From assembly GCA_001002415.1 (NCBI GenBank), contig LCMB01000001.1, positions 33,999-97,998 of the forward strand: a stretch of 64,000 nucleotides of DNA, read 5' to 3'. The first letter of the stretch is position 1, and each line of letters opens with the position of its first letter. A program made the position numbers and the translations under genes. This DNA is from Microgenomates group bacterium GW2011_GWF2_46_18 (lineage in GTDB: Bacteria; Patescibacteriota; Microgenomatia; UBA1400; UBA12108). The notes below the pieces were generated by a model. The model was not told the DNA's origin. It did no database searches and worked only from the letters and a program-made list of their open reading frames with translations. Positions 8,091 through 50,100 of this stretch are shown in pieces.

Positions 8091-8171
8091 AATAAAACTC
8101 CTTAACATGAACTTATGATGAACAACTGGGTTATTATAGCGTACCGGAAGGAATGTGGAATAGTCCCCGAT

Positions 8172-8603
8172 TCATCGATAATTTTCGATTTTTCTACGTA
8201 ATACCCAACTGTTTATTAGATATAGAATACTTGCGAGCATTAAATATTGGATCAGGGCATTGGCTGTAAAGTTTTTATCGAGAGCAAAAGATACCTGTGG
8301 GGGTCCTTGTGTAAAATAGCTCCAAGTACGAAGCGCCAAGAACCAGATTGGAGTAAATAGGATAAATATTAAAATATCTAACAAATACCATGGCATTATT
8401 GGCAATCTGCGATATCTGGAAATAAGAATAAAAATGCTCGCTATAATTATTGGTGTAAATGTAGTTACACCAATTATGTATAGACTCAAAGATAGTTGAG
8501 GGTTAACGAGAGAAACGACGCGAGACATGATCATGGCATAGACAAAGAGTAAACCTATACCGATCAGATACGAAATAAGAAATGTAAAATAAAACTTTCT
8601 CAT
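8172..8603 (-). CDS. small 4-TM membrane protein, unknown function
   Basis: 143-aa hydrophobic ORF with no motif I recognise. It lies between secY and adk, which are normally adjacent. Confidence 0.5.
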   Translation of the reverse strand: MRKFYFTFLISYLIGIGLLFVYAMIMSRVVSLVNPQLSLSLYIIGVTTFTPIIIASIFILISRYRRLPIMPWYLLDILIFILFTPIWFLALRTWSYFTQGPPQVSFALDKNFTANALIQYLMLASILYLINSWVLRRKIENYR

Positions 8604-8626
8604 AAGTAATTGTGTAAGTAAAGAAA

Positions 8627-9910
8627 CTACCTAACAAAACTATCGTAGGAACGGGCAACGGTGTAGGATTGCATTTTGCGGTAGGTTTCGAGAATAACGG
8701 AAACAACAATCAAGAGGCTGGTTCCGCCGACAGTAAAGGTCGAGACACCGGTAGCGCCGGAGATAAGACTAGGGAGAATGGCTATAAGACCCAGAAAAAC
8801 TGCACCGGGAAGAGTGGTTTTGCGCACAATGTTTCCCAGATAGGTGGCGGTGTGGGTACCAGGACGAATACCGGGAATATAGCCACCATTTTTTTTGAGA
8901 GAATCGGCAATTTTGGTTGTATCAAAAACAACGGCAGTGTAAAAGTAGGTAAAGCCGACCACAAGACTAAAATAAATGAGATTATAGGAGAGCGAGGTGG
9001 GGGTAAAGTGGGCGGAAAAATTGGCGGCAACAGAGGCGATATTTGGATTGGGGAGCTTAGCTAAAGCCTGGGCCAACATGGAGGGAGCTAGAACTAAGGC
9101 AATGGCAAAAATAATCGGGATCACTCCGGCGTTATTCAGTTTGATTGGCAAATAGGTCGAGGTAGTTCCACTGGCTCCACCGCGAATGCGACGAGAGTAC
9201 TGAACAGGAATTTGGCGTTTGGCTTCGTCGATGGCAATAATCGCGGCAATGACAGCCAAGCCGGCGACGGCGACGGCCAAAATATTCCAGGGATTGACAG
9301 TCGAGAGGATGGCTTCCGTACGCAAGAAACTAAGGGGAATGCGGCCAACGATACCAGCAAAAATAATCAAGGAGATCCCGTTGCCGAGGCCGTACTCGGT
9401 CAAGTTTTCACCCAGCCACATGAGAAAAATACTGCCGGCGGCCATGGTTGCAAGGAGCGCAAACAGAGCCAAGGGAGAAGTGATGGTGACGAGATTGCCG
9501 GACCTAAGAAGCATGTACATAGCGGCCGACTGTAGGAGTGCTAAAGGAACGGTAATCATGCGGGTGTACTGATTAATTTGTTCACTGCCGCTTTCACCCT
9601 CTTTGGAGAGTTCGGACAGTTTGGGAGAGATCATGGTCATAAGCTGCATAATAATCGAAGCGTTAATGTAGGGATTTAACCCTAAAGCTAAGACGGAAAA
9701 ATTGGCGAGAGTCCCACCAGAAAAAACGTCGAGAAGTGACAAAAGCTGATTGTTGGAAAAAACATCTTTAATCGCTTCGACGTTGACACCAGGAACGGGG
9801 ATATGAGTAATCAGACGGAAAATGGCAAGAATCAAAAGGGTAAAAAGCAACCTCCGCTTAAGTTCGCGGTTGGTTTTAATGGTAGTGATAATTTCACTGA
9901 TCTTGGGCAC
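8627..9910 (-). CDS. secY: preprotein translocase subunit SecY
   Basis: The track ORF extends to 10003, well inside rplO. I prefer the GTG at 9910, preceded by GGTGGAG. Ten-TM SecY-like sequence. The start is uncertain. Confidence 0.9.
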
Positions 9911-31494: not shown

Positions 31495-32415
31495 TCAATA
31501 TAAGTAGGTTTGAATGTTTTGGGTGTGTTCGGCGTTGGTTTTGGCATAGCGGATCACCCCTTCCCGGTCGTGAAGATAGAACCAGTAGGGAGAATCTTCG
31601 GGGGAAGCGGCGGCTTTAAGACTGGCGAGACCAGGGTTACAAATGGGGGAAGGGGGAAGACCTGGGTGAAGATAGGTATTGTAGCGAGAGGGAAGCTGGC
31701 GATCACTAAGCGAGGTTTGGGGCCACCAATCACGGGCTGAACCTTTGATGTATTGGACTGTAGCATCTAATTCGAGAGGCCAATCGTTGGCAAGCCGCTT
31801 GTGGAGAATGCCGGAGACCAGGGGTTTTTCGGCGTCTCCCTTGGTCTCGCGTTCAATCAGAGAGGCCAGAATGAGAGTAGAAGAATCGACTGAGCCAGCT
31901 TTCTGGAGGAAATTGTCGTGCATTAATTTGACCAATTCGGGGGCGGTTATCCCCTCTTTGAGGAAATAGGTGTCCGGAAAAAGCTGACCTTCCAATCCCT
32001 TGGCGGCCGCCAAAAAATCTGGAAGAGGAAGTCCCGCGGCAAGTGCAATTTGTTCGGCGCGATATCCTTCGGGAATGGTTAACTTGGTAGACTTGGCAAG
32101 ACCCCGGGTGAGAGAGTGGGCAATGTCACTAACTGATTGGTGGGGAGAAAGTTGATAATAACCAGCTTGAAGGGTAAGACTTTTTATACGAACGAAGAGC
32201 CGAAAATAAAGCGGGGAGCGAATGAGACGGTTACTATGCAAGTTTTTGGCAATAGATTGGGCGCTTTGGCCGGTCTGGACAATGAATTCCTGAGAGGAGG
32301 CCTGGCGAGAGACCGGCAGGGTGAGAAAATATAGATAGAGACCAGCGCCGACAAGAGCGAGAACACTAAACCTCGCTAAAAAGGGCACGGCGGTATTTTT
32401 TCGTGTTTTCGTCAT
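31495..32415 (-). CDS. mltG: endolytic transglycosylase MltG (YceG-like)
   Basis: 306 aa. N-terminal TM, LTIPEGYRAEQIA and YNTYLHPGLPPSPICNPG motifs. Confidence 0.85.
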   Translation of the reverse strand: MTKTRKNTAVPFLARFSVLALVGAGLYLYFLTLPVSRQASSQEFIVQTGQSAQSIAKNLHSNRLIRSPLYFRLFVRIKSLTLQAGYYQLSPHQSVSDIAHSLTRGLAKSTKLTIPEGYRAEQIALAAGLPLPDFLAAAKGLEGQLFPDTYFLKEGITAPELVKLMHDNFLQKAGSVDSSTLILASLIERETKGDAEKPLVSGILHKRLANDWPLELDATVQYIKGSARDWWPQTSLSDRQLPSRYNTYLHPGLPPSPICNPGLASLKAAASPEDSPYWFYLHDREGVIRYAKTNAEHTQNIQTYLY

Positions 32416-32563
32416 AAATAAAGATCCGTCCGCACTTACAGGTTACTTTGGTATATTTTCCTTGCTGGGTCTTTTTCCCCTTGGAAAGAGGCATACCACA
32501 GCCAACACACTGACCCAGGGAAAGTAACCAAGCCTGAACGGGAGCAATCAAAGTTTTGAACAT
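32366..32563 (-). CDS. small zinc-ribbon protein
   Basis: 65 aa. CVGC-x17-CKC, with an AAGGAG SD. Overlaps the annotated mltG start by 50 nt. Confidence 0.4.
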   Translation of the reverse strand: MFKTLIAPVQAWLLSLGQCVGCGMPLSKGKKTQQGKYTKVTCKCGRIFIYDENTKKYRRALFSEV

Positions 32564-32603: not shown

Positions 32604-32990
32604 CTAGGTTAGTTTAACAGATTCAAGGTAATCTTCCAAAATGAGGGCGGCGGCATAAGAGTGGTCATGCCGACGTTTGTGGGCGGAGACACCTGGATGG
32701 CGGAGCTTCTGCTGAGCTTCGTAGGAACTAAGGGTTTCGTCATGGAGGGTGACTGGTAAGGCAAGATGTTGTTGAAGGAGAAGGGCAAATTGGCGGACAG
32801 CGGGTTCGAGCGGTCCGGTGGGTAAGCCAACAATAACCTGAGTCACTTGGTGTTGAGAGCAGAGGGAGTGAAGGCGAGAGAGGAGCTTTGAATCATTGGG
32901 GAGAAAGGGAAGAGGGGTGGCAAGGGTGTGCTCGGCCAAAGCGAGACCGAGATGAGCCAAGCCGTAATCAATACCAAGATATTGGGTCAT
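32604..32990 (-). CDS. ruvX: putative pre-16S rRNA nuclease / Holliday-junction-resolvase-like RuvX (YqgF)
   Basis: The track ORF extends to 33044. I prefer the Met at 32990 (MTQYLGIDYGLAHLGLALAE), which gives an ATGA overlap with the sortase stop. YqgF-type LGIDYG motif. Confidence 0.85.
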   Translation of the reverse strand: MTQYLGIDYGLAHLGLALAEHTLATPLPFLPNDSKLLSRLHSLCSQHQVTQVIVGLPTGPLEPAVRQFALLLQQHLALPVTLHDETLSSYEAQQKLRHPGVSAHKRRHDHSYAAALILEDYLESVKLT

Positions 32991-33691
32991 AAGAGGACAG
33001 CTTTCACAATAAGCCGGCGGAGATAGGTGCCGGGAGGAGTACAAGTAATGAGAGTTAGAACGCGATTATTATAGCTTTGGGCGAGCGGGGAGAGGTCATC
33101 GGGAGTAGTTTCGTAGATATCTTTGATTTGGTAAGTGTAGGTAGCTGGACCAAAGACGATTTCGATTTCGTCGCCAGGCTCAAGAAGGTGGAGGGTAGAA
33201 AAAATCGTGAGATAGTTTTTTGGATTAAAAAACTGAGGCAAGACGGAATGACCAAAAATGACACCGTTACCTAAATCCCCCGGGAAAGCGGTGCCGGGAT
33301 AGTGAATAAGCGATTCTTTCAGATCGGTGTGATCGTTTCTGACAACGGCAGAATAAATGTTGAGCCGGGGAATAGAGAGGGTGTAACTGATTTGGGAAGA
33401 ATTATTGGGGTGGGTAGCGGGAGAAAACCAGGCATCGGAGTTGGTGTAGTCTAGAGCTGTATTGACCATTTCGGGTAAGACGGTCGTGGTGTCATTGGAA
33501 TTGGCAGCAGCAGCGGTGGAAAACCGAGGAGCAAAGGTTAGCTGATAAACAAGCATGGGGTAAGCCACTGAGGTAAAAGCGGTCACTCCGAGAGTTAAAA
33601 GGAGGCTGGAAAAAAGGAGACGAAAATTAAGGGCGCGAGGGCGACGACGCAAGGTATAGCCAGGGGGAGCTTTGATATAACGGTATGACAT
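32987..33691 (-). CDS. sortase family transpeptidase
   Basis: 234 aa. N-terminal TM, GNGVIFGHS His motif, catalytic LTLITCTP, and a downstream R (YLRRLIV). Confidence 0.85.
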   Translation of the reverse strand: MSYRYIKAPPGYTLRRRPRALNFRLLFSSLLLTLGVTAFTSVAYPMLVYQLTFAPRFSTAAAANSNDTTTVLPEMVNTALDYTNSDAWFSPATHPNNSSQISYTLSIPRLNIYSAVVRNDHTDLKESLIHYPGTAFPGDLGNGVIFGHSVLPQFFNPKNYLTIFSTLHLLEPGDEIEIVFGPATYTYQIKDIYETTPDDLSPLAQSYNNRVLTLITCTPPGTYLRRLIVKAVLL

Positions 33692-33692
33692 A

Positions 33693-35906
33693 CTAGTTGG
33701 CGGCGGGAGTGATTAGGAGCTCGATGTGTTTGGGATTGCGCGGCAGGAGTTTGAGACGCGGAGGGAGAAAATGGGGAGTGACAGTAATTTGGGCATCGGC
33801 ATAACCAGGCAAGGTTTGGAGGATGGAGATTGATTGGGCGAGGGATTTACCACGAAGACTATTAATCAGACTGGCTTGATCAAGGGTGGGAAGAAGAAGA
33901 ACGGTGATTTTGGCGGTAGCACTGACCTCACCATCTTTGGTTTCGGTAACGTCAGTTAAGGAAATACTGGGAGAAGAGTCAAGACGAGAATAACCAGGAG
34001 GGATGGCTTCGGAGAGACGAGAACTGATTAGATTTTCAACATCACTATTAGCGTAACGCAAAATTGATAACTCGAGTTCTAAGGTCCCGGTTAAAGAGTT
34101 AGCGACTTCCCCTATTTTGGCGGAAAAATCACTCTGTACTGTTTTGGGTGAACTAGTTAAAACGTAATAACTAAAACCCGGTTCGCGACGGGATTCGAGA
34201 CTAGCACGAGCATCTTGGATAATAGTGTCAGTCAGAGTTTTGGTGAGTGAAGATGAATCTTCTTTGCCCACAACTTGAACGTCTTGACTGGTCCCGCCAG
34301 CAAGAGCTTGTTCGTTTTTGGCGATGTAGGTATCCTTGGAAAAGCTAGCCACAACAAATTCACTACCACTACCAAGGTTACCGGCAGTACCAAAAGTGGC
34401 GGCAGTAATTGCTGCGGAGGCTTTCCCAGGAATATCGACATAATCAGTCCCGGCCGATTTACTTGCAATGGTAGTATCTTGATCAAGAGTAAATTTGAGC
34501 GAGTTGCTAGTTAGCACGGTCCCTTTGGGGAAAGTCTTAACGAGAGTGGTGCGATTGTAAATGGTAACAGTGCCACGGGCGGGATCACCGATGGTAGAGT
34601 TTCCGGTCGTAGGAATGGTTTGAGTGGACGTTAAAGTTTCGGTACTGACGGTGGCGGGAATAAGAGAAGAAGCAGAATCAGGCGAAGTTATGGTAGAGGA
34701 GAGGGTGAGCGGGAGTGATTCTTCTAGGGGAGTAGGAGTCAAAAAGAGAGTAATTTTGGCTTGAGGTAAAAGATAGAAAAGGAATGTGAATAAACCCACA
34801 AGGACAAGGAGAATGAGACCACCAAGAATAAGGGGTAGGCGGGAAAAATGAACGCGAGGGAGAGAAAATTGGGGTAGTGAAAGGTGGGGTAATTGGAGAG
34901 TGGGAAGTTTCCGGGAAGGAGGTGGGGGCGGAGAAATGATGGGTTCAGAAGAGACGGGATCGGTATCTCCGAGAGAGAAACCAACATCGCTGGCGGTTAG
35001 AAGGGGGGTTGGAGCCACACCTTCGCTAGAGTCTTCGGCGGGCTCAGCCACGCCTTCTCCAGAAGCTTCGACGGGTGAAGAGGGAGAATCGATGGGTTCG
35101 GGGGAAACAGGAGATTCTTCGGAATTAAGGTCGGCAACGGTAGAGCCGATTGCTTGGGCAACGGCAGCTCCGCCGGCTAGAATTAAGCTACGAATGGCGG
35201 TATCGCGAGGAAGACTTTCTATTTTGGGAATGTGGAGAAAATTAAATTTTTTCTGCCAATCAAAAGTTAAAAGGGATTGCACGACATCGCTGGGGTTTTG
35301 CAGAGAGCTTTGGACAATAATACGAGAAGGAAGATGGTCTAGCTGGGGGAAATGGGAGATGCCACTGGCAACGTCCTCGACAATATCTTCGCTGCGAGAG
35401 ATTAGTTCGGTGGCTTCGATCCGGCCCAATTGAACAAGGAGAAGGGAAATGTGGCGCAAACCAACGTTGACTAAGATACAAGTGGTGGGAGTCCCCTCTT
35501 CTTTTTTGAGATAATGGAGAGTGCTGTCGGTTAAAACCACCAAACCAATTGCCTTGAGGGCGAGCTCTTTGCAGATGGCTTTGAGTAGATTGCGTTTACT
35601 ACCGAGGATACCTTGGGCATCTACCCAACTGGGTTCTACTCCAACCACCACTTCGTTGGGTTCGACAGAAAGGCCATCCAAAGCTGAACTGACGGTGGCA
35701 TCGGCGGCTGAAATAAGTTCGGTCGTGGTACCGGTTTCGCCGTTCCATTCAACGGGGGTACCGAGAGCGGTAATTTCGGGAGTGCCTTGAGTGATCTGCC
35801 AGACGGCGGATTGGACAAGTTCATCGGTAACAACCAGAGCGAGAAAAGTCTGAGGAATCTCCTCACCTTTGCCCTTTAATTTACCCAGAAGATCAGGGAT
35901 TGCCAT
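33693..35906 (-). CDS. bitopic protein with a degenerate actin/FtsA-like N-terminal domain, a Pro-rich linker, one TM and a beta-rich extracellular region
   Basis: 737 aa. The N-terminal ~260 aa show the strand pattern of ASKHA/actin-like folds (FLALVVTD..., TCILVNVGLRHISLLLV) without canonical DxG/GGG phosphate motifs. This is followed by a P/S/E-rich stretch, a TM (LILGGLILLVLVGLFTFLFYLL), and then GTVTIYNRT...GTVLTS...FGTAGNLG, which is reminiscent of baseplate-J-like modules. Confidence 0.5.
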   Translation of the reverse strand: MAIPDLLGKLKGKGEEIPQTFLALVVTDELVQSAVWQITQGTPEITALGTPVEWNGETGTTTELISAADATVSSALDGLSVEPNEVVVGVEPSWVDAQGILGSKRNLLKAICKELALKAIGLVVLTDSTLHYLKKEEGTPTTCILVNVGLRHISLLLVQLGRIEATELISRSEDIVEDVASGISHFPQLDHLPSRIIVQSSLQNPSDVVQSLLTFDWQKKFNFLHIPKIESLPRDTAIRSLILAGGAAVAQAIGSTVADLNSEESPVSPEPIDSPSSPVEASGEGVAEPAEDSSEGVAPTPLLTASDVGFSLGDTDPVSSEPIISPPPPPSRKLPTLQLPHLSLPQFSLPRVHFSRLPLILGGLILLVLVGLFTFLFYLLPQAKITLFLTPTPLEESLPLTLSSTITSPDSASSLIPATVSTETLTSTQTIPTTGNSTIGDPARGTVTIYNRTTLVKTFPKGTVLTSNSLKFTLDQDTTIASKSAGTDYVDIPGKASAAITAATFGTAGNLGSGSEFVVASFSKDTYIAKNEQALAGGTSQDVQVVGKEDSSSLTKTLTDTIIQDARASLESRREPGFSYYVLTSSPKTVQSDFSAKIGEVANSLTGTLELELSILRYANSDVENLISSRLSEAIPPGYSRLDSSPSISLTDVTETKDGEVSATAKITVLLLPTLDQASLINSLRGKSLAQSISILQTLPGYADAQITVTPHFLPPRLKLLPRNPKHIELLITPAAN

Positions 35907-35915
35907 ACCTTTAGC

Positions 35916-37694
35916 TTACACTATTTTGGCGTAGATGCGACGTTTGCCGGAACCCAAGGCTTCATCCTTGAGAATGGTGATGGGACCGATTGCCCCAGTA
36001 TGATCGACATGAGGACCACCACAAAGTTCTTTGGAGTAATCTCCGATAGTATAAACCGTAACTTGGGCGGGATATTTTTCGGCAAAAAAAGCTCGGGCGC
36101 CGGACTTGATGGCCTCCTCTTTGTTTTCGGTAGTTTTTATGACAGGAAGGTTGGCTTTGATTTTTGCGTTTATGATAGTTTCAATTTGCTTTAATTCAAC
36201 CTGGGTTGGCTTGCCGTTATAGGTGTAATCAAAACGTAATCGCTCGACAGTAATGTTACTTCCGGCCTGAGTAACTTCCTTTCCCAACACTTCGATTAAA
36301 GCTTGGTGAAGAAGATGGGTGGCAGTGTGATATTTGGTAGTGGTCTCACTATGATCGGCCAAGCCTCCCTTGAACATCCCAGCGCTCGCGGTACGACTTC
36401 CCTCTTTGTGTTTGGCAAAAATCTGGTCAAACTCGCTTTGGTTGAGAACAATATTTTTTTCGGCTAACAAATCGCGGGTGATTTCAAAGGGGAAACCTAA
36501 GCTTTGATAGAGATTAAAGGCAAATTGAGCGTCAATTAGCTTGGGATCGGTACGCTCGATATCTTTGAGGCCTTTATCAAGGGCTTTGCCAAATTTGTCG
36601 AGCTCAGTGTTGATGATTTCCTTGACGCGGGGGAGAACAGTTGAGTCAATGAAGCCGGCTTCGGCATATTGGTTGACAATAGTTGGTGTACATTCAGTAA
36701 AGATTTTCTTGGCGTCTAAACCAAGGCGGCGAGCGCGAACAGCACTGCGACGAAGAAGCCGGCGGAGAACGTATCCCTGGAGTTTGTTACTGGGTTCCAG
36801 TCCCTGAGCAATCATAAAGACCGAAGCGCGGAGGTGATCAGCGATCACACGCATGGGAGACATAAAATCTCCTTGATATGATTTCCCAGATGAATCTTCA
36901 ATCATTTTAATAATTGGGGTGAACATATCGGTGGCGAAAACGTCGGGATTATTTTGAGAAGCTGCCGTAATACGTTCAAGACCACCACCAAAATCTACGT
37001 TTTGGGCTGGGAGAGGTTTTAGGCCATCGGCAACTTTTTCGTAGGCCATAAAAACCGAGTTGCCAATTTCTAGAAATTTTCCACAGTCACAGTTGGGGTG
37101 ACATACATCACCAAATTTTGGGTCGTGCTTAATATTGGTGAATTCATAAAAAATCTCACTAGTTGGACCACCAATCTCCCCTACTGGCATTTGATCGGGA
37201 GTACCGGCGCGGCTCCACCAATTTTTCTTTCCTGGATAATAAAAAATATGATTATCTAAAACTCCAAGGCTTCGCCAAATATCATATGACTCCAAGTCTT
37301 TGGCAATAAATTCATTGCCTTCGAAAAGGGTCACATATAATTTATCGGTAGGTAATTGTATTTCTTTGGTGAAAAACTCCCAGATCCATGACAGTTGCTC
37401 ATATTTAAAATAATCGCCGAGACTCCAGTTACCCAACATTTCGAACATACAGGTGTGACGATTGTTCCCGACTTCTTCAATGTCGTCGGTGCGAAAGCTG
37501 GGCTGAGAATTGACAAGCCTTTTCCCCATCGGATGAGGTTCGCCCTTGAGATAGGGAACTAGTTGTTGCATGCCGGAACTGGTAAAAAGAGTGGTCGGGT
37601 CACCCGCGGGTATTAGGGGGGCGGCCGGAACAAGGGCGTGAGTGTGCGCGGCGAAAAAATCAAGATACTTCTTGCGGATATCACTACTTTGCAT
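35916..37694 (-). CDS. alaS: alanine--tRNA ligase, short form lacking the C-Ala domain
   Basis: 592 aa. N-terminal class II core (FTSSGMQQ, FEMLGNWS), editing-domain HxxxH (HTATHLLH) and CGGPHV. It ends right after the editing core. Confidence 0.9.
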   Translation of the reverse strand: MQSSDIRKKYLDFFAAHTHALVPAAPLIPAGDPTTLFTSSGMQQLVPYLKGEPHPMGKRLVNSQPSFRTDDIEEVGNNRHTCMFEMLGNWSLGDYFKYEQLSWIWEFFTKEIQLPTDKLYVTLFEGNEFIAKDLESYDIWRSLGVLDNHIFYYPGKKNWWSRAGTPDQMPVGEIGGPTSEIFYEFTNIKHDPKFGDVCHPNCDCGKFLEIGNSVFMAYEKVADGLKPLPAQNVDFGGGLERITAASQNNPDVFATDMFTPIIKMIEDSSGKSYQGDFMSPMRVIADHLRASVFMIAQGLEPSNKLQGYVLRRLLRRSAVRARRLGLDAKKIFTECTPTIVNQYAEAGFIDSTVLPRVKEIINTELDKFGKALDKGLKDIERTDPKLIDAQFAFNLYQSLGFPFEITRDLLAEKNIVLNQSEFDQIFAKHKEGSRTASAGMFKGGLADHSETTTKYHTATHLLHQALIEVLGKEVTQAGSNITVERLRFDYTYNGKPTQVELKQIETIINAKIKANLPVIKTTENKEEAIKSGARAFFAEKYPAQVTVYTIGDYSKELCGGPHVDHTGAIGPITILKDEALGSGKRRIYAKIV

Positions 37695-38332: not shown

Positions 38333-38959
38333 TTACTTGGAAACCGTGAAGGTGCGCTCGAGGAGACGAGTTTTGCCTTCGCGACTTTGGGCTTGGATCA
38401 ATACTCGGTGGGTACCGGCGGGAAAAAGTAAGTCAAGACTAAACTCGCCGTTTTGGCCAACAATAACTTTTTGATCGTTAATAATGACGGTGGCATCGGG
38501 AGCAGTCAGACCTTTAACGGTAATTTTCTCACCGTAAGTCTCGCCATCCTGAGGCTCTAGGACGTTGAGTTTGGGGAGACTCCACCAAGAAAACAGTTGG
38601 AAACCCAAAAAGGTCAGAAAAACCACAATACAAGTGATGAGTAAAATAAGATTGATGGGAAGAGGGGGATGGCGATCCAGAACTGGTTTGACTAAACCAC
38701 TAGGAATAATTTCGCCAGTGTGGCTTTCGGAAAAATCACGACGGAACATGGCGAGAATAGTTTCAGGATTGAGATGAAGAACTTTGGCATAACTACTGAG
38801 GAAACCCTTGGTAAAGGTACCGGAGGGAAGTAACGAAAAATCGGAGTTTTCGAGAGCCTGAAGGTATGATTCTTTGACCTTAATTTTTTGGGCAATGTCA
38901 GCAAGAGAGAGCTCGAGGAGGAGACGTTTGTCGCGAAGTAATTGACCGGCGGTTTTCAT
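38333..38959 (-). CDS. RodZ-like HTH membrane protein
   Basis: 208 aa. N-terminal XRE-type HTH (LSLADIAQKIKVKESYLQALE...GFLSSYAKVL), one TM, and a beta-rich C-terminal domain. Confidence 0.6.
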   Translation of the reverse strand: MKTAGQLLRDKRLLLELSLADIAQKIKVKESYLQALENSDFSLLPSGTFTKGFLSSYAKVLHLNPETILAMFRRDFSESHTGEIIPSGLVKPVLDRHPPLPINLILLITCIVVFLTFLGFQLFSWWSLPKLNVLEPQDGETYGEKITVKGLTAPDATVIINDQKVIVGQNGEFSLDLLFPAGTHRVLIQAQSREGKTRLLERTFTVSK

Positions 38960-48099: not shown

Positions 48100-50049
48100 T
48101 TACAGGGTTGTGGGGGATGGATAGGCGGAAATGAGTGGAACAGGAATGGGAGTGGGGGTTGGAGTAGGAGTTAGTTTGGGAGTGGGGGTTGGAGTAGGTT
48201 TTGGAGTGGGAGTTGGCAGAGTAGTAAGTTTGTATTGAAAGTAACCATTGCAGTTCAGCCATTCAGAACGAGCATAACGAGGGGCACATTTGCCGTCAGG
48301 ACTTTTGGTACCAGTAGAGAAAGTAACAGCACTTTCACTTTGAAAAACTTTGCCGTCAATGGTTATTAAATTAACCCGTAAATCTCGTTTGCTAAAATCG
48401 TTGGTAAAGGCGACTTGAAGTTTGTCGGTAGGCAAAATTTTTGTAGGGTGAGTGTAGGTAAATTTTTGAAAAGTGCGAAGAAATGGATTACCACGAACGT
48501 TTTTCCATTGCATGACTGTGCGACCATTAATCCGTAAGGCCATGGTGGGATAAAGGTCAGCATATTTGGTCCCAGCGGCGAGAATAGTAATCGTACTTTT
48601 CTGGGTGGTGAGAGAACAATCTTTGGGACATGATATGGGAGTTTCGGGACAAGGACAGCCGGTGCCGAGACAAACAATTTCTTCACAGGTACCATTGCCA
48701 CAGGTGTTCTTGCAGATAATCGAAGGACTCGGTGAGGGGAAAGTTGAGGGAATGGGTGGAAGAGAAGGTTGGGTTTTGAAAGCTAAAAGTTTGAGGTTTT
48801 TGAACACAAGATATCCCTGGTATTTACCTGAAGTGCTGGTTAAGACAAAACGATTAATAAACCTAGGTTCACCATACCAACCCATGCCGTTACGATGATC
48901 ATAGTAGATCCAATCACCGGGAGTTTTGCCATCGTAGGTACGGATTTGAGAAACACCCCATTGTTTGAGAGTACCATTGGTAGTCGCGACGTCTTCGGCA
49001 TAAAAATAGATATTAAGCCGCATCTCGCGGTCTTTCTCATGCCAGGTCGTTTCGAGGGTGGTGTAGTTGGGATTGCCTGGGTCAGAATGGAGGGTAACTT
49101 GGGTGTTACGACTATCAAAACGGACGCCGTCAGCGACTAAGTAAAAATCATCGGCAGATAGAGACACCTGGGGAGTTTCCCAAGAAACCTGATTGGGGGG
49201 AGAAGTGGGGACGGTTGATTCGACAAAGACTAAACCATCTCCGACAGGGGTTCCGGCGTGGGTTTGCCAATTCATCCCATTAAGATAATCGTTGTTCAGT
49301 TCGTAGCTGGCGATGATGCCGGGTTGCCAAATGGGCTCGCTGGGAATATCAAAATCGTGGGCGTATTTAGGCTGATCATAGATATAAATGTTGTCCAGTT
49401 TACCGAGAAAAACATTGTTGAGAGTAAGATTGTCGATGGGTTGAGAATTGTATCCTCCTAGAGTAAAAACGAGTCTGGAGTGTTTGGGGGAAGTGGAGCT
49501 AGTGGTAGTGGTGGCAATGATTTTCCCGTTAAGGAAAATTTTTACCCCTCGCAAGTCTCTTTGAAAAACTACGTGGTGCCAAGAGTTGGGGGTGACAACA
49601 AAAGGAGTGCGAAGTTCACGAGGACCAGATTCTTCCCAGTACCAACCAACAAGACTGCCCTTACCTTCGTTAAAATCGGCATTGCCCTGAAGGGAAAGTG
49701 AGGTTTGAATCCCACTATTATTACTGGGTTGGGAAAAAATATAGCGATCTTCTGATTGGGATGTGAAAGAATTGGGATAAATCCAAGCTTCAAAGGTAAA
49801 AGAACCGTCGGAAATTAGGGGGGGAAGGATGACGGCAGAGTTTTGATCGGTGATTTCAAGGGCTTGTTTAAATGGTTGGACTCCAGCGATTTCAGCGATT
49901 CGAGCAGGTTGAGAGAAACTGCGGTAGAGATAGACAAAAAGAGTTCCCAAGAGTAGAAGTAGCAGAAGAACAAACCAGGGTGCTTTAAAATTTAACTTGT
50001 GAGATCGGGATTTTTTGAGAAGGCGGCGCTTTTTTGATTTGGCGGGCAT
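48100..50049 (-). CDS. membrane-anchored surface protein with LamG-like, Cys-rich and CBM-like modules and a TP-repeat tail
   Basis: The track ORF starts at a TTG at 50091; I prefer the ATG at 50049. Basic N-terminus plus TM, a LamG-like stretch ([11 protein letters not shown]...WHHVVFQRD...[10 protein letters not shown]), [23 protein letters not shown], a beta-rich C-terminal module, and [22 protein letters not shown]. Confidence 0.55.
48148..48198. repeat. 30-nt-period tandem repeat encoding the Thr-Pro tail
   Basis: The 21-mer GGGAGTGGGGGTTGGAGTAGG occurs at 48148-48168 and again at 48178-48198, inside the 3' end of the surface-protein gene. Confidence 0.8.
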
Positions 50050-50100
50050 GATTTGATGGTAGGAGGTTGAGAGGGAGCTGTCAACTAGCAACTGAAAAGG

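Follow-up and report, generated by a model that had tools for sequence, protein, structure and literature searches.

This report concerns a 64,000-nucleotide (nt) stretch of DNA, hereafter the window, from Microgenomates group bacterium GW2011_GWF2_46_18 (contig LCMB01000001.1, forward-strand positions 33,999 to 97,998), and in particular a minus-strand gene at 33693..35906 that starts with ATG, ends with a TAG stop and encodes a protein of 737 amino acids (aa). From N- to C-terminus the protein joins an FtsA-derived domain of the actin-like ASKHA fold, a linker, a set of LPxΦx repeats, one transmembrane (TM) helix and a baseplate-J-like ectodomain. We refer to it, together with its single-gene homologues, as the fused protein or fused form. 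GenBank holds the identical sequence as a hypothetical protein in metagenome-assembled genomes (MAGs) of the Microgenomates/Collierbacteria group, and its UniRef entry bears the name 'Baseplate protein J-like barrel domain-containing protein'. Read along the minus strand, the locus runs RNase J, ftsK, a RodZ-like gene, two genes for small membrane proteins, alaS, the 737-aa gene and a sortase gene, followed by ruvX, a 65-aa Cys-rich open reading frame (ORF), mltG/yceG, rpoB and a 1213-aa ORF whose position is that of rpoC in the syntenic locus L001. The spacing from alaS to the 737-aa gene is 9 nt, and the sortase gene (32987..33691, minus strand), which encodes a membrane-anchored protein of 234 aa with a Pfam Sortase match at E 1.1e-23, begins at an ATG 1 nt past the TAG stop. 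A first-pass annotation made from the sequence alone had placed the gene immediately upstream of a sortase, and in this it was correct. An NCBIfam scan assigned the window sortase to none of its sortase classes at cut-off.

The N-terminal region, aa 1-262, was modelled with AlphaFold2 from a 59-sequence alignment at a predicted local distance difference test score (pLDDT) of 89.4 and a predicted template modelling score (pTM) of 0.84. The model consists of two beta-beta-beta-alpha-beta-alpha-beta-alpha lobes in ASKHA order and contains no inserted subdomains. Foldseek matched it to 668 PDB chains at E<=1e-3; among the matches listed, 50 of 50 were ASKHA proteins, with query TM-scores (TMq) of up to 0.60. 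The actin-like N-terminal fold proposed in the first-pass annotation is therefore borne out by prediction and structural search alike. The leading matches were PilM (5eoy, E 1.7e-9, TMq 0.58) and FtsA (2.8e-9), which are essentially tied, so that structure alone cannot choose among the ASKHA families. Taking AlphaFold2, Foldseek, hhalign and the motif columns together, we delimit a minimal FtsA-derived ASKHA core at aa 20-254 (35145..35849, minus strand). The nucleotide motifs of this core have degenerated. Phosphate-1 (DIGT) aligns to VVTD, phosphate-2 (DVGGGT) to NVGLRH and the adenosine motif (CGGG) to QSSL; the glycine residues are absent from the family alignment columns, and DxGGGT is kept in none of 105 fused family members. 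The phosphate-binding motifs are thus indeed replaced, as had been proposed. Preceding the core is a peptide of 19 residues (aa 1-19, 35850..35906, minus strand; consensus MELGNFLGKLKG...) that is conserved by alignment column and predicted to be disordered, with AlphaFold2 pLDDT values below 50 at aa 1-4 and 7-14 of the 737-aa protein.

The ancestry of the N-terminal domain is best read from relatives in which its counterpart is a separate gene. Of the sequence relatives, P0114 is the most distant. It has no ASKHA domain, and its gene lies 3 nt downstream of the gene for a separate ASKHA protein of 418 aa, which keeps the motifs ALDIGTE, IDVGGGTTD and LCGGGS. With the A1 profile, an alignment that includes P0114 itself, P0114 reaches 321 bits (E 7.9e-90), and as a single-sequence match 2.3e-6. 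Split pairs of this kind, in Dojkabacteria and other lineages of the candidate phyla radiation (CPR), comprise an FtsA-like protein of 410-424 aa and a membrane protein of 540-631 aa. The motifs DIGT, D[IV]GGG[TS] and CGG[GA] are kept in 12 of 12 complete split FtsA-like proteins, and these proteins start with peptides similar to that of the fused form, such as MGLFDFIKSRK and MIKLPFLKPK. When the fused N-domain family was compared by hhalign with 14 separate FtsA-like proteins, the local alignment reached a probability of 98.5% (E 3.5e-15) and the global alignment 99.2% (E 4.8e-19), the latter running from residue 1 through the whole domain, interrupted by two large gaps. The separate FtsA-like profile in turn matched E. 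coli FtsA over 352 columns at a probability of 98.6% (E 5e-16), as against E 0.21 for HofM (PilM) and 0.73 for GspL. Consistent assignments came from tblastn with E. coli FtsA as query, which matched the separate genes at up to 1.35e-14, and from the 418-aa protein, which scored 3.6e-24 with the TIGR01174 ftsA model (below the model cut-off) versus 3.7e-5 with pilM and found FtsA 7q6f (E 6.9e-9) as its best PDB sequence match.

Compared directly, the fused N-domain family gave hhalign E values of 0.062 for E. coli FtsA, 0.39 for both E. coli HofM (PilM) and E. coli GspL, 0.19 for the MreB of locus L098 and 0.77 for the DnaK of the window. The Pfam and NCBIfam FtsA models (TIGR01174 / PF14450) matched neither the whole 737-aa protein nor aa 1-262, the PilM_2 and GspL Pfam models had no match in the 737-aa protein, and PDB sequence searches with the whole protein and with the family profile returned nothing for the N-domain. 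The domain is connected to FtsA solely through the separate FtsA-like proteins, not directly; along this chain of profile comparisons it is derived specifically from FtsA, not from PilM or GspL. The looser likeness to FtsA or PilM noted in the first-pass annotation is in this way sharpened to FtsA descent. The two gaps of the global alignment leave aa ~103-195 and ~265-312 of the FtsA-like proteins unmatched, and from their positions in the established FtsA structure we take these segments to be subdomains 1C and 2B. In FtsA, the 1C (SHS2) subdomain is an insertion in lobe 1, and 2B is the site that binds the FtsZ tail. In the model of the fused protein there is no extra domain at the 1C place, between helix 61-76 / strand 85-90 and helix 102-114, and the 2B place holds just a short helix (175-183). 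The split FtsA-like proteins retain both segments.

These comparisons bear directly on one alternative, namely that the protein is a platform of GspL or PilM-PilN type that docks a secretion or pilus ATPase, serving a type IV or a sortase-built pilus. PilM is the top Foldseek match (the 5eoy chain named above), GspL has the same plan of a nucleotide-free ASKHA-like domain, a TM helix and an outside domain, and type IV pili are common in CPR bacteria (PMC6744442). However, FtsA is essentially level with PilM in the same structural search, and the profiles tie the domain to FtsA rather than to PilM or GspL, for which both the fused and the split profile gave the insignificant values listed above. 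The ectodomain is not the ferredoxin-like periplasmic domain of PilN and GspL. Furthermore, the annotated tables and ORFs around the gene in the window and in several related loci showed no pilin, PilB/PilC or Gsp gene; the wider screen of ~120 loci covered six families only (sortase, alaS, ruvX, mltG, FtsA and FtsZ). The neighbourhood indicates cell-wall and division genes (alaS, fused gene, srt, ruvX, mltG, with mreBC in relatives) and not pilus genes. We consider a pilus platform improbable.

The slot between alaS and ruvX-mltG holds the fused gene and sortase in the window and two genes in split lineages: loci L098 and L057 read alaS, FtsA-like gene, membrane protein gene, ruvX, mltG, and L098 continues with mreB-mreC. 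In Dojkabacteria the pair is located after RNase J, and its two genes overlap in all four loci. A pattern scan of metagenomes, sorted with five hidden Markov models built in this analysis, yielded 80 loci. Fifty-two were fused, with a sortase within 100 nt in 48, farther away in 2 and contig ends in the remaining 2; 13 were 5'-truncated, all with a sortase downstream; and 14 were split, with a gene for a 410-424-aa FtsA-like protein directly upstream and a sortase in 0 of the 13 that were informative. The membrane protein of the split pair carries a conserved N-terminal cytoplasmic domain of ~98 aa (KIVVN..HELTDIVR...LTFTEQTDLLISPINLKVL...QIIQNPTG.RNA; L043 8001-9866, alignment A6), and its ectodomain carries a conserved Cys pair; the fused form is without either. 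No Pfam model matched the split-form membrane protein as a whole, and its one NCBIfam match was non-significant and fell outside the ~98-aa domain, which we regard as a candidate FtsA-binding module. A gene fusion in the Microgenomates line is the simplest reading of this distribution, by which a formerly non-covalent contact between FtsA and its partner was made covalent; the ATP motifs, the 1C- and 2B-position segments and the cytoplasmic domain of the partner would have disappeared afterwards. The direction was probably fusion rather than fission, and by Rosetta-stone logic the ancestral FtsA-like protein and its membrane partner would have interacted physically. Assembly artefacts are an unlikely source of the fused ORFs because these occur in more than 100 independent assemblies.

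The family is large and, as far as we found, uncharacterised. An initial homologue search gave 114 mostly full-length homologues, and a word-indexed repeat search with a 41-sequence profile added no new members. An exhaustive profile search, which showed that the greater part of the family escapes the word index, returned 11,933 cluster representatives at E<=1e-3, 9,470 of them at <=1e-10 and 3,812 at <=1e-30, and the best 150 of the 11,933 are all full length (689-847 aa). Database labels are either 'hypothetical' or 'baseplate J/gp47 family', and our literature search found no paper describing the family or linking baseplate J / FtsA fusions to CPR. Among GTDB genomes, the fused form occurs under the labels Woesebacteria, Collierbacteria, Gottesmanbacteria, Daviesbacteria, Beckwithbacteria and Microgenomates group. 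Many of the loci L004-L042 bear other titles, 'uncultured Pseudomonadales' or 'uncultured Gammaproteobacteria'; we take these to be mislabelled MAGs because Microgenomates gene order is common to them.

The linkage to the sortase was quantified in a GTDB set of 42 loci, 39 of them from distinct GTDB species, of which 38 are informative downstream. A sortase candidate starts between -14 and +44 nt from the stop of the fused gene in 36 of these 38, with a 4-nt overlap in 14 of the 36. The exceptions are L042, with a gap of 773 nt, and L034, with no sortase next to the gene. In L034, one divergent lineage, the place of the sortase is taken by a protein of 287 aa (8141-9004) that looks exported and carries a GDS motif. 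Together with the 48 of 50 informative fused metagenome loci, the adjacency pointed out in the first-pass annotation proves to be a conserved feature. The sortase family is reported to occur almost throughout Microgenomates and patchily in other CPR (Meheust et al. 2019, PMC6744442), a distribution with which the correlation between fused form and sortase agrees.

We next consider how the protein is placed in the membrane. The actin-like core is followed by a variable cytoplasmic linker rich in Pro, Ser and Glu (aa 255-333; 34908..35144, minus strand), the composition over aa 255-352 being 19.6% Pro, 17.5% Ser and 9.3% Glu. The first-pass annotation had this composition right and the length too short, at ~80 rather than about 100 aa. 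Within the linker, column conservation marks an A-(E/D)-x-x-G-F motif (aa 305-310, nt 34977-34994), whose G309 and F310 are invariant in the close alignment A4 and at least 90% conserved in the divergent alignment A1. Four LPx(hydrophobic)x pentapeptides (LPTLQ LPHLS LPQFS LPRVH; aa 334-353, 34848..34907, minus strand) correspond to the repeats described at the outset as LPxLxLP-type; P340, P345 and P350 are conserved, and in the predicted topology the repeats adjoin the membrane on its cytoplasmic side. The single TM helix expected from the first reading is found at aa 357-379 (34770..34838, minus strand), one hydrophobic segment with a Kyte-Doolittle value of 2.86. Its N-flank contains four Lys/Arg and no Asp/Glu, and its C-flank one Lys/Arg and three Asp/Glu; by the positive-inside rule this basic N-flank and acidic C-flank predict an N-in/C-out orientation. 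In 105 of 105 fused relatives the N-flank carries the more positive charge of the two, the protein has no signal peptide, and the conserved Cys pair of the split-form ectodomains also counts among the support for this topology. The ectodomain is accordingly predicted to lie outside the cell, as the first-pass annotation had it. Sequences that could make the protein a sortase substrate were also sought. The C-terminus of the 737-aa protein (...LPRNPKHIELLITPAAN) has no sorting signal of the type LPXTG, hydrophobic stretch and basic tail, and among all window ORFs searched, LPXTG-type signals occurred in spurious off-frame ORFs only and in no real ORF. A juxtamembrane 'LPxA' after the TM helix was considered as a sortase site and dropped, because its Pro is invariant also in the sortase-less split forms and starts the first beta-strand of the ectodomain.

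The ectodomain (aa 381-737; 33696..34766, minus strand) was modelled with AlphaFold2 at pLDDT 95.6 and pTM 0.80, and model and Foldseek together resolve it into long beta-hairpins, a baseplate-J barrel and alpha/beta modules. Its description as beta-rich holds for the hairpins and the barrel, while the C-terminal half is alpha/beta and not purely beta. The barrel, assigned from Pfam, hhalign and Foldseek to Baseplate_J (PF04865), spans aa 442-539 (34290..34583, minus strand). Four independent sequence signals, each weak, suggest this assignment: the Pfam match itself, which is marginal (E 1.9e-4, 21.2 bits against a cut-off of 21.1); a match of the family profile to diffocin TRI-2 at E 0.0049; an hhalign match to Mu gp47 at E 5e-4, with shuffled gp47 controls at 0.34 or above; and precomputed PF04865 matches on about a third of the homologues. 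In the PDB the best Foldseek matches, with E values from 3e-6, were baseplate wedge proteins, namely those of phi812 and Pa193 as well as Mu gp47 and diffocin TRI-2, and in BFVD nearly all named matches were 'Baseplate J-like'. The barrel alone superposes on the wedge proteins over 99-121 residues at a root-mean-square deviation of 2.6-4.4 A, and a global hhalign of the ectodomain with Mu gp47 showed no homology beyond it. The likeness to baseplate J noted in the first reading is hence real and conserved, yet only the ~100-aa barrel superposes well.

A further alternative is that the gene is a remnant of a prophage or contractile injection system, with a baseplate wedge protein present by chance. 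The Pfam match and the Foldseek similarity to baseplates of phages and diffocin speak for such an origin, as does the name 'baseplate J/gp47 family protein' in some databases. However, no tail, sheath, hub or gp25-like gene was seen nearby, the annotated neighbours being housekeeping genes in the loci examined; about 120 loci show the gene in one and the same housekeeping slot; and a tblastn search of 50,697 phage genomes with the ectodomain as query returned nothing at E<=0.01. The protein also has a TM helix and an FtsA-derived domain, features that phage wedge proteins are without. On the slot, the tail genes and the phage search we regard this origin as effectively refuted, and its probability as close to nil.

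Another possibility is that the protein serves an episymbiont primarily as a surface adhesin or in host contact, with the FtsA remnant vestigial or a mere anchor. The extracellular region is large and well folded in the predicted model. Barrel-level structural matches include a domain of the cellular surface enzyme GlxA (21% identity in Foldseek) and a CenC-like carbohydrate-binding viral protein, and CPR bacteria are believed to live attached to hosts. Against this stands the strong conservation of both domains and of several short cytoplasmic motifs across a very large family. Fast-evolving adhesins differ in this respect, and such conservation is hard to reconcile with a vestigial N-domain. 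The gene also keeps a fixed location among housekeeping and cell-wall genes, and the protein has no repeats or variable tip. An adhesin thus appears a rather poor candidate.

The reading we prefer, and to which we assign about an even chance, is that the product of the two-gene fusion is a trans-envelope scaffold whose FtsA core is a passive docking module and which takes part, with the sortase, in wall growth or division. It builds on the architecture, fold, FtsA ancestry, fusion event, motif degeneration, synteny and sortase linkage described above, and on the predicted topology. The FtsA part, reduced to a bare two-lobe core, would act as a passive cytoplasmic docking module rather than a polymerising ATPase, since its nucleotide motifs and its 1C- and 2B-position segments are lost. 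Such a core is probably unable to bind ATP, and likewise probably unable to form FtsA-type filaments or to bind the FtsZ tail in the known way. A true TM helix would hold it at the membrane with the ~357-aa ectodomain on the outer face, and contacts could be made through the conserved N-terminal peptide, the GF motif and the LP repeats. The gene and that of the sortase stand in a closely packed, operon-like row within the conserved cell-wall neighbourhood of alaS, ruvX and mltG, to which relatives add mreB and mreC. By analogy with baseplate wedge proteins, the ectodomain may self-associate. In this manner an extracytoplasmic wall process could be positioned relative to the cytoplasmic growth or division machinery, the most plausible such process being the anchoring activity of the co-encoded sortase on nascent peptidoglycan. 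The protein would then work with the sortase and couple cytoplasmic machinery to the cell surface.

Several observations weigh against the trans-envelope scaffold. Since the missing 2B-position segment is the FtsZ site in FtsA, a canonical link to the divisome is unlikely. The whole block from ftsK to rpoB is syntenic in the class, which makes adjacency alone weak as an indication of joint function, and the sortase gap sizes are biased towards small values because the start chosen was the candidate nearest the upstream stop. Whole-chain TM-scores to the wedge proteins are just 0.2-0.24, and with only the ~100-aa barrel superposing, wedge-like oligomerisation is a guess. The link to division, cell wall or sortase is drawn from sequence and genomic context.

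The same evidence bears on the possibility that the protein is simply the functional FtsA of Microgenomates, still tethering FtsZ, with a true TM helix in place of the amphipathic one. In both position and sequence it is orthologous to the FtsA gene found in sister lineages. Within the 1.3 Mb of related DNA retrieved, which consists of local neighbourhoods only, no second FtsA gene was found; tblastn with E. coli FtsZ gave no match in all fetched DNA (this sequence, comprising window and loci), and a look beyond the window for ftsA and ftsZ showed just ribosomal, recA, RNase Y and ABC-transporter genes. However, the FtsZ-tail site of known FtsA, the 1C-position segment and all nucleotide motifs are gone, and we consider a conventional tethering role decidedly unlikely. 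A bolder extension of the scaffold reading holds that the ancestral ftsA itself, and not a spare paralogue, became the nucleotide-free, membrane-spanning fusion devoid of 1C and 2B, so that Microgenomates divide without a conventional FtsA, and that fusion and co-translated sortase form a lineage-specific trans-envelope machine in which a ring made of the phage-baseplate-type ectodomain organises wall anchoring at the site of division or host contact. This we offer as an unlikely proposal.

FtsA is among the most conserved bacterial division proteins, and the cell biology of CPR bacteria (Patescibacteria) is almost unknown. The family matters in this setting for several reasons. A single locus displays an evolutionary series, from an FtsA with ATP motifs and a membrane partner to a fused, degenerate FtsA core with a sortase, and the split form predicts a new FtsA-binding membrane partner in CPR whose outside domain is of the phage-baseplate type. 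The fused form supplies a natural 'minimal FtsA core', from which it could be learned which FtsA surfaces matter without ATP. The widespread label 'Baseplate J/gp47 family protein' is corrected, the gene being a core cellular gene and not a phage gene. Finally, the family offers a possible link of cytoplasmic cell-cycle machinery to sortase-dependent surface assembly in bacteria attached to other cells, and the fused protein suggests that envelope growth is wired in an uncommon way in these tiny bacteria.

Further features of the neighbourhood were recorded alongside. The ruvX ORF as listed starts with TTG at 33044 (minus strand) and overlaps the sortase gene by 58 nt; an alternative ATG at 32988-32990 (MTQYLGIDYG) and the Pfam match suggest that the true start lies there, where sortase stop and likely ruvX start overlap as ATGA. 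If so, the 737-aa gene, the sortase gene and ruvX would form a translationally coupled string. The alaS product is short, 592 aa (35916-37694, minus strand), with tRNA-synt_2c and tRNA_SAD domains only; the homologues whose lengths were read in related loci have 616-626 aa, and a bacterial alanyl-tRNA synthetase usually has about 870 aa. The 65-aa Cys-rich ORF (CxxC...CxC; 32366-32563, minus strand) between ruvX and mltG has conserved counterparts, 55-77% identical, in over 30 related loci. The RodZ-like protein of 208 aa (38333-38959, minus strand) combines HTH_25 with a TM segment and an outside domain resembling Glucodextran_B, and its gene adjoins ftsK in related loci too. A 663-aa protein with Laminin_G_3 and CBM60 (48100-50091, minus strand) is likely a surface carbohydrate-binding protein, and a Laminin_G_3 protein is also encoded near the homologous gene in locus L002. 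All window ORFs of at least 200 aa lie on the minus strand, and the GC skew of the plus strand is positive in 32 of 32 2-kb bins; extreme strand bias of a like kind has been reported in a complete Microgenomates genome (PMC7143001).

Set beside known systems, the fused protein has in common with the split pair the ectodomain family, the ASKHA lineage and the slot between alaS and ruvX-mltG. The split pair differs in consisting of two genes, in keeping the ATP motifs, the 1C- and 2B-position segments, the ~98-aa domain and the Cys pair, and in having no adjacent sortase (0/13). With FtsA it shares homology via the separate FtsA-like proteins, the ASKHA core fold and membrane attachment. Unlike FtsA, it is without the phosphate-1, phosphate-2 and adenosine motifs and the 1C- and 2B-position segments, it is attached by a true TM helix leading into a 357-aa ectodomain instead of a C-terminal amphipathic helix, and in the window and fetched loci its gene is not beside ftsZ. 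With the baseplate J proteins, Mu gp47, P2 gpJ, T4 gp6 and diffocin TRI-2, it shares the ~100-aa barrel, with weak repeated sequence signals, and the alpha/beta modules that follow align in the same order. However, its ectodomain starts with beta-hairpins, Mu gp47 aa 1-85 ahead of the barrel being unaligned, and the fused protein is membrane-anchored and cellular, with no wedge, hub or sheath partners and no close phage relative. GspL and PilM-PilN follow the same logic of design, a cytoplasmic actin-like domain (nucleotide-free in GspL), a TM helix and an outside domain. They differ in that their sequence relationship to the fused protein is undetectable (hhalign E 0.39 each), the outside domain is another one, GspL and PilM keep a 1C-like subdomain that the fused N-domain is without, and no secretion or pilus genes were seen near the fused gene in the annotated loci. 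GspL is the fused counterpart of PilM and PilN, just as the fused protein is the counterpart of the FtsA-like protein and its membrane partner; the fused protein is thus GspL-like in design and not a member of the GspL family. What is new is the combination of an FtsA-family protein, a GspL-like bitopic design and an unprecedented ectodomain.

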